From Escherichia phage moha, in the sequence record MN850590.1: a stretch of DNA of 64,000 bases, one strand, 5' to 3'. Shown in pieces: positions 17,483-18,369 of the stretch (its first letter is position 1; each line of letters begins with the position of its first letter). Below the pieces are notes generated by a model, which saw only the letters and a program-made list of their open reading frames with translations, did no database searches and was not told the DNA's origin. Position numbers and translations under genes: made by a program.

Positions 17483-18025
17483 ATGAGAAAAGCACTACTC
17501 GCTGGTCTATTTGCTCTTTCATTATCAGCACATAGCTCCGAGCATACTTTTAGTAATGTCCAACTCGATAACTTGAATTATGCTTATCAGTTTGGGGAAC
17601 AGTTTTCTAAGGATGGAAAATTTAAAACGCATGAAAATATGCATAAGAAAGGACTTGGATACATAATGGCCGCAATACTATGGCAGGAATCATCTGCCGG
17701 TATTAATCTTAAAGATAAGAAAGGTCACCATGCGTATGGAATGTTCCAAAATTATCTACCGACAATGAGGGCAAGAATTAACCAGCTTGGTTATAATATG
17801 ACTGATGCCCAAATTAAGAAAATGCTATCTAAGCGGTCTAATTCAGCCAGATGGGCTTATATCGAATTTTCTTATTGGTTAAATATACATAACGGGGATA
17901 TAAGAAAAGCTATATCCTCATATAATGCGGGATGGAAGACAAGTGCCGGAAGTAAATATGCTTCTGAAGTCCTAGAAAAGGCTAATTACCTTAAATCAAA
18001 TAAACTACTGGAAATAAAAGAATGA
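17483..18025 (+). CDS. secreted lytic transglycosylase-like protein (SLT domain)
   Basis: 180 aa; signal peptide; ES...GMFQ...YNAGW motifs. Confidence 0.75.
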   Translation: MRKALLAGLFALSLSAHSSEHTFSNVQLDNLNYAYQFGEQFSKDGKFKTHENMHKKGLGYIMAAILWQESSAGINLKDKKGHHAYGMFQNYLPTMRARINQLGYNMTDAQIKKMLSKRSNSARWAYIEFSYWLNIHNGDIRKAISSYNAGWKTSAGSKYASEVLEKANYLKSNKLLEIKE

Positions 18026-18369
18026 CCAAAATGTTGGCTTTAATAGTTGGCTTGGTTTCATTTAATGCTCTTGCTAATACTACATATACTGATGTAACGG
18101 AGTATACAAACAGAACGGCGTCTGATTATTGTGGTAAAAGTCAAGAGTGTAAAGTAGATTTTTCACAAAAATTGTTATATGCGTATAAAGACGGAGAAAA
18201 AGACGGGGCGTCTAGTAGGTTCAAGGCGTCTACCTTAATTAAAAGATACTATAAAAAATGGCAAATATTAGAATGCTCGGTGGCGGAACCTAAAGATAAG
18301 GCAGCATGCAATTCTATGGTGGACCGTCTAGTTGACTCTTATAATAGAGGACTTGCAGCAAGTGATTAA
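18022..18369 (+). CDS. secreted/periplasmic protein
   Basis: 115 aa; N-terminal signal peptide. Confidence 0.75.
   Translation: MTKMLALIVGLVSFNALANTTYTDVTEYTNRTASDYCGKSQECKVDFSQKLLYAYKDGEKDGASSRFKASTLIKRYYKKWQILECSVAEPKDKAACNSMVDRLVDSYNRGLAASD

Follow-up and report, generated by a model that had tools for sequence, protein, structure and literature searches.

What do the two small open reading frames between regB and tk contribute to a T4-type phage, and in which compartment of the infected cell would their products act? The question was raised for Escherichia phage moha (record MN850590.1), an RB69-like, T4-type phage of which a stretch of 64,000 nucleotides (hereafter the window) was analysed, by an initial annotation that described both ORFs as carrying signal peptides and the first as a lytic-transglycosylase-like protein acting on murein. 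That reading stands in part: SLT likeness and predicted export are supported, but it missed that the ORFs are the named genes vs.1 and vs, and that the second already carries an annotation as a protein that modifies valyl-tRNA synthetase (ValRS).

Gene identity and organisation of the locus

Both ORFs are real, and they lie between regB and tk exactly where they had been placed: the first (17483-18025, + strand) starts with ATG and encodes 180 amino acids, and the second (18022-18369, + strand) encodes 115. The gene order is regB, vs.1, vs, tk.4, tk.2, tk, with regB (17016-17474) matching Pfam REGB_T4 (E 2e-69) and tk (19015-19596) matching Pfam TK (E 7e-57). Because the two ORFs share 99% DNA identity with RB69 coding sequences annotated as vs.1 and vs, and because of the synteny with T4, they are RB69-type alleles of the T4 genes of these names. 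The vs.1 product falls in phrog_600 (E 3.7e-67), as do T4 and RB69 Vs.1 (NP_049725 and NP_861805); it represents the same gene in the same position between regB and vs, with about 83% protein identity to T4 Vs.1 and no material difference. Likewise, the second product belongs to phrog_1256 (E 1.8e-35) and to Pfam PF26829 (ValRS_modifier), an assignment that is precomputed on all Vs homologues, and is the orthologue of T4 Vs ('tau'), with 67.5% identity, the same length and the same position. The observation on both ORFs is correct and mostly not new; both genes had been catalogued before, and an article of 2006 (PMC1524935) already reported the resemblance of vs.1 to SLT.

Vs.1 and Vs are each 100% identical to proteins of deposited phage genomes, which in the case of Vs.1 include phages AV113 and p000y and several deposited Mosigvirus phages. 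Homologues are present in 2060 phage records for the first ORF and in 795 for the second, and comparison with T4 gives a dN/dS of about 0.15 for vs.1 and, for vs, a dN of 0.23 with saturated dS. Public labels of vs.1 range from 'hypothetical protein' to 'SLT transglycosylase', with some records wrongly carrying 'endoribonuclease'; NCBIfam and PADLOC returned no match for either protein.

The two genes are tightly packed with regB, tk.4, tk.2 and tk. The predicted Shine-Dalgarno sequence of vs.1, GAGG (17474-17477, +), is found 5 nt ahead of the ATG and overlaps by one base with the end of the regB stop codon (TAG, 17472-17474). The stop codon of vs.1 overlaps the start codon of vs in the arrangement ATGA (18022-18025, +), by which translation of vs would be coupled to that of vs.1. 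Downstream, the macrodomain gene tk.4 (18362-18826, +), with a GTG start by RB69 annotation, overlaps the end of vs by 8 nt; its T4 orthologue goes by the name AdfM (anti-DarTG2 factor) in a preprint of 2025. A terminator-like hairpin (18381-18399, +), a candidate from a consensus scan only, has an 8-bp stem followed by GTTTTCT and sits 12 nt past the vs stop, within the 5' end of tk.4. A promoter scan of the locus gave a site count no higher than in shuffled sequence.

Predicted export and the annotation of Vs

The signal peptides claimed for both ORFs were recovered as a classic Sec-type layout by a heuristic of our own for n-, h- and c-regions, by which cleavage is predicted only. The heuristic calls for a positive n-region, an uncharged hydrophobic h-region of at least 9 residues, small residues at -3/-1, no lipobox Cys and a polar mature N-terminus. 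Of the window's 138 ATG-initiated ORFs on the + strand with 50 amino acids or more, only seven pass, with about two likely false positives among the 138. The seven include Vs.1 and Vs and, as positive controls, spackle (61066-61359) and RI (19849-20151), this phage type's two known periplasmic proteins. The predicted signal peptide of Vs.1 (17483-17536, +) consists of MRK, ALLAGLFALSLS and AHS, the latter followed by S, with cleavage placed between MRKALLAGLFALSLSAHS and SEHTF; that of Vs (18022-18075, +) consists of MTK, MLALIVGLVSF and NALA, followed by N, with cleavage placed between MTKMLALIVGLVSFNALA and NTTYT. The Vs.1 precursor (20.6 kDa) would thereby mature to 162 residues (18.7 kDa, pI 9.6), and the Vs precursor (12.9 kDa) to 97 residues (11.0 kDa).

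The three-part layout recurs in all 48 aligned Vs.1 homologues despite their divergent sequence, and 74 of the 76 full-length members of the Vs family, from three divergent clades, pass the heuristic. In the AlphaFold models, pLDDT is 64-66 at residues 1-20 of Vs.1, whose domain for the most part exceeds 90, and below 50 at residues 1-13 of Vs. A lipoprotein reading of the ORFs was rejected, there being no lipobox Cys. A SAR domain, which is a long, weakly hydrophobic and uncleaved segment, was likewise rejected for Vs.1, whose h-region spans only about 13 residues, with a canonical A-H-S site next to it; the N-terminus of RI, in the same window, spans about 24. Both Vs.1 and Vs are therefore predicted, on these sequence features, to be exported via Sec.

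In the case of Vs, predicted export meets an annotation, 'valyl-tRNA synthetase modifier', that is 50 years old and describes a role in the cytoplasm. The name of T4 Vs implies a cytoplasmic partner, whereas the periplasm is indicated by the predicted signal peptide found across the family, by the four conserved cysteines and by the vs.1 gene nearby. The four invariant cysteine codons (18130-18309, +) are those of C37 (18130-18132), C43 (18148-18150), C85 (18274-18276) and C96 (18307-18309). Exactly four mature cysteines, arranged as two pairs, occur in nearly all of the 82 Vs members (70 of the 76 that are full-length), and the loop spacings of the pairs vary (5/6/10 and 8-10). The predicted fold is a four-helix bundle in which each pair brackets a helix-helix turn; the pairs are probably disulfides formed in the periplasm, and the four cysteines could in principle bind a metal.

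A Foldseek search with the Vs model gave nothing in the PDB below E 0.9 and, in BFVD, only the Vs family, and Vs gave no sign of a sequence or fold likeness to spackle. Membership of a lysozyme-inhibitor family (spackle, Ivy, MliC/PliC) was rejected, with no match of fold or sequence, and the idea of a spackle-like inhibitor is without structural support because Foldseek found no relative of Vs beyond its own family. Spackle (gp61.3) is a periplasmic inhibitor of the gp5 tail lysozyme (PMC7650644), and the likeness of Vs to it would be a functional analogy only, that of a small exported protein controlling a lysozyme-fold enzyme; the window carries a spackle gene of its own. A single-sequence search with Vs of 1.84 billion representative proteins returned only 7 matches, and an apparent confinement of the family to Tevenvirinae was corrected once two remote proteins encoded next to vs.1 had been built into a profile.

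The alternative that survives best takes the annotation at its word. Vs would be a cytoplasmic tau that binds and stabilises host ValRS, with an N-terminus that is not, or only partly, used for export; Vs.1 would be the sole envelope protein, and the adjacency of vs to vs.1 a matter of gene order. We regard this as a real possibility, if an unlikely one. In its favour, selection of vs mutants made use of a temperature-sensitive valS host, and this would place the action of Vs in the cytoplasm; the tau peptide is about 10 kDa, close to the mass predicted for mature Vs. The ValRS annotation has also been inherited across T4, RB69 and hundreds of records, phrog_1256 and PF26829 among its carriers, and Muller & Marchin (1975, 1977) are cited for binding of Vs to ValRS in PMC8076793. 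Against these points, T4 Vs with an N-terminal His tag proved insoluble when expressed in the cytoplasm (PMC8076793). The three-part signal peptide of Vs is maintained across three clades at 30% identity or less, and cysteine pairs that are kept while their loops vary are, in combination with a signal peptide, expected of periplasmic and not of cytoplasmic proteins. The positive charge before the hydrophobic core of Vs and the acidic, polar stretch after it argue for an N-in/C-out orientation, and the N-terminus lies outside the predicted fold. To our knowledge, modification of ValRS has been assayed only in cell extracts, in which a periplasmic Vs could meet ValRS only after breakage.

Fitness data from T4 bear on the same choice. 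In the HIDEN-SEQ transposon screen (preprint), vs.1 and vs are both non-essential but fitness-relevant, with insertion read means in LB about 7-40 times below those of most neighbouring genes (Data S8: vs.1 22.6 and vs 26.6, as opposed to regB 178.6, tk.4 289.6 and vs.3 652; Data S4: vs.1 15.0 and vs 33.9). In M9, vs was the most depleted gene (log2FC -2.19), and vs.1 had a log2FC of -0.87 (p 0.0055, adjusted p 0.155). Depletion of vs in a minimal medium, where amino-acid supply limits growth, favours the cytoplasmic alternative, but the defect fits an envelope role as well as one in amino-acid supply or tRNA charging; the vs.1 phenotype, for its part, may be partly polar on vs.

An exported Vs is also suggested by the company it keeps. 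In all 32 loci carrying a Vs-family gene, taken from three Vs clades that share 30% identity or less, vs.1 lies upstream on the same strand, abutting or overlapping vs in 28 and one ORF away in the other four. The converse does not hold in Aeromonas phage Aes508 and Kuttervirus PhiSH19, where vs.1 has no vs within 1.5 kb. Since Vs is co-inherited with vs.1, an envelope role is the most likely one for it, although the adjacency could reflect inherited T4-type gene order and not a functional link. A more specific proposal would be that Vs is not, or not only, a ValRS modifier, and that it serves as a disulfide-bonded, four-helix periplasmic partner of Vs.1, the two genes forming an envelope module that is conserved in T4-type phages from Escherichia to Acinetobacter and improves fitness, above all in minimal medium; we put this forward tentatively, and with rather more doubt than confidence.

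Active-site signature and predicted fold of Vs.1

The motifs ES...GMFQ...YNAGW that had been noticed in the first ORF are all present, on the + strand. QESS (residues 68-71; 17684-17695) holds the putative catalytic Glu69 (codon 17687-17689) and Ser71, GMFQ (residues 86-89; 17738-17749) corresponds to SLT motif II (G-L/M-M/F-Q), and YNAGW (residues 147-151; 17921-17935) corresponds to SLT motif III (A/S-Y-N-A/S-G), with Tyr159 (17957-17959) further downstream. In an alignment of 48 Vs.1 homologues, with identity down to 40%, the invariant positions include E69, S71, G86, Q89, N90, Y147, N148, G150 and Y159. The motif stretches E69-S71, G86-Q89 and S146-G150, together with Y159, are invariant or close to it throughout. 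In the E. coli enzymes MltE, Slt70, MltC and MltD, the catalytic E-S pair is the counterpart of E69 and S71 in the alignment, and GMFQ and YNAG align with the GLMQ and AYNxG of E. coli lytic transglycosylases.

The likeness to lytic transglycosylases is carried by these motifs, by a match to the SLT family at the level of the homologues and by the fold, but less well by the score of the protein itself: against Pfam SLT (PF01464), Vs.1 of the window reaches 18.8 bits (E 0.0013), which is under the gathering cut-off of 21.3. Of the 48 homologues, 43 match SLT at E<=0.01, the best of them at 1.3e-7, and SLT is the sole Pfam family matched. Profile-profile alignment (hhalign) with four E. coli family-1 domains gave E 9e-4 over 90 columns, with ES, GMFQ and YNAG in register; the Vs.1 profile aligned with single MltE and Slt70 sequences at E 0.13 and 0.057, values too weak alone, and PDB sequence searches with single proteins and with the Vs.1 profile gave no usable match. 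For the AlphaFold model (pLDDT 90.2), the top Foldseek matches in the PDB are all GH23 or lysozyme-like, and include a Ralstonia GH23 chitinase, MltD, P. aeruginosa Slt, E. coli Slt70, the phi6 P5 lysin and T7 gp16, with probability up to 1.00, a best E of 0.011 and a TM of about 0.5. Statistically, the support from hhalign and Foldseek is modest.

In common with Slt70, MltC, MltD and MltE, Vs.1 has a lysozyme-like helical fold, the motif order and access to the periplasm, each as predicted. It differs from these family-1 enzymes in being a minimal soluble domain of 162 residues, without lipid anchor, LysM or superhelical domain, and in two additions, a conserved N-terminal helix (FSxxQxxNLxYAYxFG) and an invariant acidic residue, E128; the sequence similarity is marginal, at the bit score given above. 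Unlike the E. coli enzymes, Vs.1 is phage-encoded, within the block of genes from regB to tk, an early one in T4. The phi6 P5 lysin and the N-terminal domain of T7 gp16 are virion-borne entry or exit enzymes, whereas Vs.1 has a predicted signal peptide, is encoded in the company of regB, tk.4 and tk and not of virion genes, and is dispensable to T4.

The same features leave some room for a GH23-fold protein that is not a lytic transglycosylase, but a muramidase, a chitinase-like glycosidase or a non-catalytic binder of murein or another glycan. The best structural match is indeed a GH23 chitinase (3w6e, with the E value of 0.011), the invariance of E128 could point to two-carboxylate chemistry, and the Pfam SLT score is sub-threshold. 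However, the three family-1 transglycosylase motifs are present, co-linear and invariant, no invariant Asp was found in the Vs.1 alignment at a goose-lysozyme-like position, MltD, Slt and Slt70 rank close behind the chitinase, and the hosts make no chitin; we thus consider such an activity distinctly unlikely. The searchable literature yielded no published enzymology or murein-activity assay of Vs.1. In silico, the analysis supports Vs.1 as exported, as bearing the active-site signature and fold of the SLT/GH23 type, and as separate from endolysin e, as had been proposed.

A proposed envelope module

It had also been suggested that the first ORF could act in lysis inhibition, and one may imagine Vs.1, together with Vs, taking part in lysis timing or lysis inhibition beside RI and holin T. 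Both proteins are predicted to be periplasmic, like RI, and the clades examined all have the rI antiholin gene 1-5.5 kb downstream, but this proximity is ordinary, since T4-type genomes in general share that gene order. The searchable literature yielded no description of vs.1 or vs as a rapid-lysis (r) locus, and nothing that came out of this analysis links them to lysis inhibition or timing. The T4 transposon screen reports no lysis phenotype for either gene, and the conditional phenotype that it gives for vs is medium-dependent; in the spackle paper, e and 5 are the only T4 genes counted as encoding lysozymes (PMC7650644). The suggestion is therefore unsupported, and we judge such a role improbable. 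That the ORFs, or the N-termini that resemble signal peptides, arose by chance, as might be feared in AT-rich phage DNA with its many spurious ORFs, is refuted by hundreds to thousands of homologues, purifying selection on both genes, confident structure predictions for both proteins, T4 transposon fitness effects of both genes and the low false-positive count of the signal-peptide heuristic, and its probability is negligible.

The reading that we hold to be probable is that these RB69-type alleles of vs.1 and vs encode an exported GH23/SLT enzyme, Vs.1, and an exported envelope protein, Vs. The analysis itself provides the identity of the genes, the motifs and how well they are conserved, the predicted fold, the layout of the signal peptides and the synteny; the relevance to T4 fitness comes from the preprint; and in this scheme we infer export itself, enzymatic activity, the disulfides and any interaction between Vs.1 and Vs. 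Cleavage of its Sec signal peptide would free Vs.1 in the periplasm, where it would be a small and basic enzyme of one domain, with a GH23/SLT lysozyme-like fold and one catalytic glutamate, Glu69. There it would most likely cut the MurNAc-GlcNAc bond of host murein in the manner of a lytic transglycosylase, working from within the infected cell while that cell is alive and separately from the holin/endolysin pathway. Vs, once exported as a four-helix protein of 97 residues whose two conserved cysteine pairs are probably disulfides, would most likely have its place of action in the envelope, where it could plausibly assist Vs.1 as a partner or regulate it.

If this is so, T4-type phages may export a third murein-active enzyme, the predicted Vs.1, to the periplasm well before lysis, and transposon data indicate that losing vs.1 costs T4 fitness. 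The 'ValRS modifier' Vs, for its part, has every sequence hallmark of an exported protein, with vs.1 alongside it in all loci examined. Should Vs be periplasmic, the classical 'modification' of ValRS would represent either a second activity of the protein or the mixing of periplasm and cytoplasm in extracts.

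The vs.1 and vs genes and their surroundings

The window is from an RB69-like phage (Mosigvirus) of the T4 type, and the 2.8 kb surrounding vs.1 and vs share 99% identity with RB69 as well as with many phages of Escherichia and Shigella. The RB69 gene order is regB, vs.1, vs, tk.4, tk.2, tk, rI.1, rI, and T4 differs from it in also having tk.3 and tk.1. Both genes are on the plus strand, with vs.1 (17483-18025) encoding 180 amino acids and vs (18022-18369), which databases name "valyl-tRNA synthetase modifier", encoding 115. A GAGG Shine-Dalgarno sequence lies 5 nucleotides upstream of the vs.1 ATG, the vs.1 stop and vs start codons overlap in the sequence ATGA, and tk.4 starts at a GTG codon 8 nucleotides ahead of the vs stop. 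Vs.1 and Vs are each 100% identical to deposited phage proteins. Because homologues are found in 2060 (Vs.1) and 795 (Vs) phage records, and because dN/dS for vs.1 against T4 is ~0.15, similar to that of regB, the two ORFs are real genes. They are already known, as is the likeness of vs.1 to SLT (Pfam PF01464, family-1 or GH23 lytic transglycosylases).

Several other features of the locus can be recorded. The product of the adjoining tk.4 (18362-18826), still listed as a 'phosphatase' in the RB69 annotation, contains a macrodomain (Pfam Macro, E 2e-6); its T4 orthologue protects against the DarTG2 defence system and has been renamed AdfM (preprint 10.1101/2025.11.20.689424). A consensus scan placed a hairpin resembling a terminator (AGGGCGATATTGTCGCCCT, then GTTTTCT) on the plus strand at 18381-18399, 12 nucleotides past the vs stop and within the 5' end of tk.4, where it could act as an attenuator of transcription or as a stabiliser of the regB-vs.1-vs message. 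The stretch 16900-19700 is 2801 bp in the window and ~3215 bp in many near-identical phages (for instance F27, NHEP36 and JK45), where it aligns in two pieces and carries two extra annotated small hypothetical ORFs; those phages therefore have an insertion of ~414 bp that is absent from the window and RB69. In several GenBank and UniRef entries, including those of phages teqsoen, JLBYU31, STP55 and PhiSH19, vs.1 homologues are named 'endoribonuclease', 'site-specific RNA endonuclease' or 'RegB family'. These proteins match SLT and not RegB, and the adjoining regB gene is the apparent source of the label.

Predicted export and the probable GH23 relationship of Vs.1

Signal peptides were judged by a self-written n/h/c-region heuristic, which requires the n-region to be positive, the hydrophobic core to be free of charge, the residues at -3 and -1 to be small and the mature start to be polar. 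It was passed by 7 of the 138 plus-strand ATG ORFs in the window, two of them probable false positives, and it recovered spackle (61066-61359, phrog_1586) and the RI antiholin (19849-20151, phrog_1246), the two proteins known to be periplasmic in this phage type. Both vs.1 and vs are among the seven, in agreement with the signal peptides assigned to them by the initial annotation, with predicted cleavage between AHS and SEHTF in Vs.1 and between ALA and NTTYT in Vs. Despite sequence drift, the three-part layout is kept in all 48 Vs.1 homologues, and 74 of 76 full-length Vs family members also pass, the remaining two being apparently truncated gene calls. The heuristic also found a clear predicted signal peptide, followed by a Gly/Ser-rich mature start (MKKLVIGLFAVMMAFSVGA...), in an 88-residue plus-strand ORF of unknown function at 22946-23212 (phrog_2243).

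The SLT-type motifs previously noticed in Vs.1 are all present, as QESS (68-71), GMFQ (86-89) and YNAGW (147-151). For the window protein alone the sequence evidence is weak, with SLT the sole Pfam match at 18.8 bits, under the 21.3-bit cut-off, and no match in PDB sequence searches. At the level of the family the assignment is consistent. SLT, and no other family, is matched by 43 of 48 homologues at E<=0.01 (best 1.3e-7), and the residues invariant down to 40% identity (E69, S71, G86, Q89, N90, Y147, N148, G150 and Y159) are those that define family-1 lytic transglycosylases. Profile-profile alignment with four SLT domains from E. coli (those of MltE, Slt70, MltD and MltC; E 9e-4, 90 columns) places ES, GMFQ and YNAG in register; alignments with MltE and Slt70 as single sequences are too weak by themselves (E 0.13 and 0.057). 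An AlphaFold model built from 48 sequences is confident (pLDDT 90.2), and every PDB match found with it by Foldseek is a GH23 or lysozyme-like protein (GH23 chitinase, MltD, P. aeruginosa Slt, Slt70, phi6 P5 and T7 gp16; best E 0.011, probability up to 1.00, TM ~0.5). Remoter relatives in Kuttervirus and in the Pseudotevenvirus phage Enterobacter vB_EcRAM-01 retain signal peptide and motifs, and weaker tblastn matches occur in Felixounavirus and Vibrio phages.

The most fitting reading of the SLT matches, invariant residues, alignment, modelled fold and signal-peptide layout is that Vs.1, with a predicted mature mass of 18.7 kDa, is a soluble GH23 enzyme of the periplasm, small and basic, with one putative catalytic glutamate. 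Among the homologues no Asp was found to be invariant, and E128, which is invariant, makes another chemistry conceivable. The evidence is not new in kind, as a marginal yet conserved SLT match of vs.1 was reported in six T4-like phages by Nolan et al. 2006 (PMC1524935), who cited earlier PSI-BLAST results for T4. A literature search found no published enzymology or localisation of Vs.1, and a 2020 paper on spackle (PMC7650644) still named no T4 lysozyme genes besides e and 5.

The Vs family and its linkage to vs.1

With Vs as a single query sequence, only 7 relatives were found among 1.84 billion representative proteins. Inspection of vs.1 neighbours revealed Vs-like ORFs immediately 3' of vs.1 in Acinetobacter phage ZZ1 and two genes downstream in a Pseudotevenvirus phage, with hhalign support for distant homology of both (E 9e-5 and 1e-6, respectively), and with these added to the profile the search found 82 proteins, all with Pfam PF26829 "ValRS_modifier", in three clades of <=30% mutual identity. 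The ZZ1 homologue (AHE63451.1, 98 aa, 1950-2279 of locus L003, HQ698922.4) has a truncated annotated start; translation from an in-frame ATG 33 nucleotides upstream, which overlaps the vs.1 stop, would give a complete predicted signal peptide (MKLINIIAVFCMIISMPVYA, cleaved before QN). The mature part of nearly all members contains exactly four cysteines, grouped as two pairs with spacings of 5, 6 or 10 (first) and 8-10 (second). The AlphaFold model of Vs is a four-helix bundle (pLDDT 86; <50 for residues 1-13) in which each pair brackets a helix-helix turn; Foldseek found no PDB relative of this model, and BFVD returned the Vs family alone.

In each of the 32 examined loci with a Vs-family gene, that gene is preceded on its own strand by a vs.1-family gene, which abuts or overlaps it in 28 and is separated from it by one ORF in 4. 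The reverse linkage fails, since no vs lies within 1.5 kb of vs.1 in Aeromonas phage Aes508 and Kuttervirus PhiSH19.

Possible roles of Vs.1 and Vs

We consider it probable that the two genes encode an exported GH23-type enzyme (Vs.1) and an exported, co-inherited four-cysteine protein (Vs). Vs.1 would cut or remodel host murein from the periplasmic side during infection, and Vs would also act in the periplasm, perhaps on Vs.1, although an actual partnership between the two is less likely than not.

The main alternative, which we regard as possible but rather unlikely, is that Vs does as its name implies and modifies valyl-tRNA synthetase (ValRS). Selection of vs mutants made use of a temperature-sensitive valS host, and the mass of 11.0 kDa predicted for mature Vs is close to the ~10 kDa of tau, the peptide said to modify ValRS. 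ValRS binding is credited to Muller & Marchin in a passage of PMC8076793. The designation of Vs as a second secreted protein agrees with its predicted signal peptide but not with a database name that refers to a cytoplasmic enzyme of the host, and the envelope and ValRS views cannot both be wholly right unless Vs occupies two compartments. N-terminally His-tagged T4 Vs formed inclusion bodies in the E. coli cytoplasm (PMC8076793), as expected of an exported disulfide protein, and this is weak evidence for export.

Transposon insertion data on gene essentiality in T4 (HIDEN-SEQ, 2025 preprint, doi 10.1101/2025.11.20.689424) class both genes as non-essential, with insertions at 30/32 (vs) and 46/52 (vs.1) TA sites. 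In the same study, vs showed the strongest depletion of any gene in M9-glucose compared with LB (log2FC -2.19, adjusted p 0) and its clean deletion plaqued poorly on M9, a minimal-medium defect that also suits a tRNA-charging role; vs.1 shifted in the same direction, but not significantly after correction (log2FC -0.87, p 0.0055, adjusted p 0.155). Mean LB insertion reads for vs.1 and vs are far below those of most neighbouring genes, without comment from the authors: 22.6 and 26.6 in Data S8 (regB 178.6, tk.4 289.6, vs.3 652), 15.0 and 33.9 in Data S4 (vs.3 650), and 75.7 and 103.3 in Data S3 (vs.3 634). Insertions in vs.1 are depleted at least as strongly as those in vs in LB but less strongly in M9, and polarity on vs alone is therefore an insufficient explanation. 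We infer, from read counts that are affected by local insertion bias as well, that vs.1 probably makes a fitness contribution of its own. Insertions in regB shifted the other way from those in vs.1 and vs, being commoner in M9 than in LB (Data S8, log2FC +1.17, p 0.049, non-significant after correction).

The ORFs, motifs and predicted signal peptides of the initial annotation are confirmed and its interpretation is supported in part. The role in lysis inhibition that it suggested is supported by nothing but nearness to rI, and this is the usual T4-type gene order. The main point of interest is that the name of vs clashes with the export signature predicted across its family and with its linkage to vs.1.
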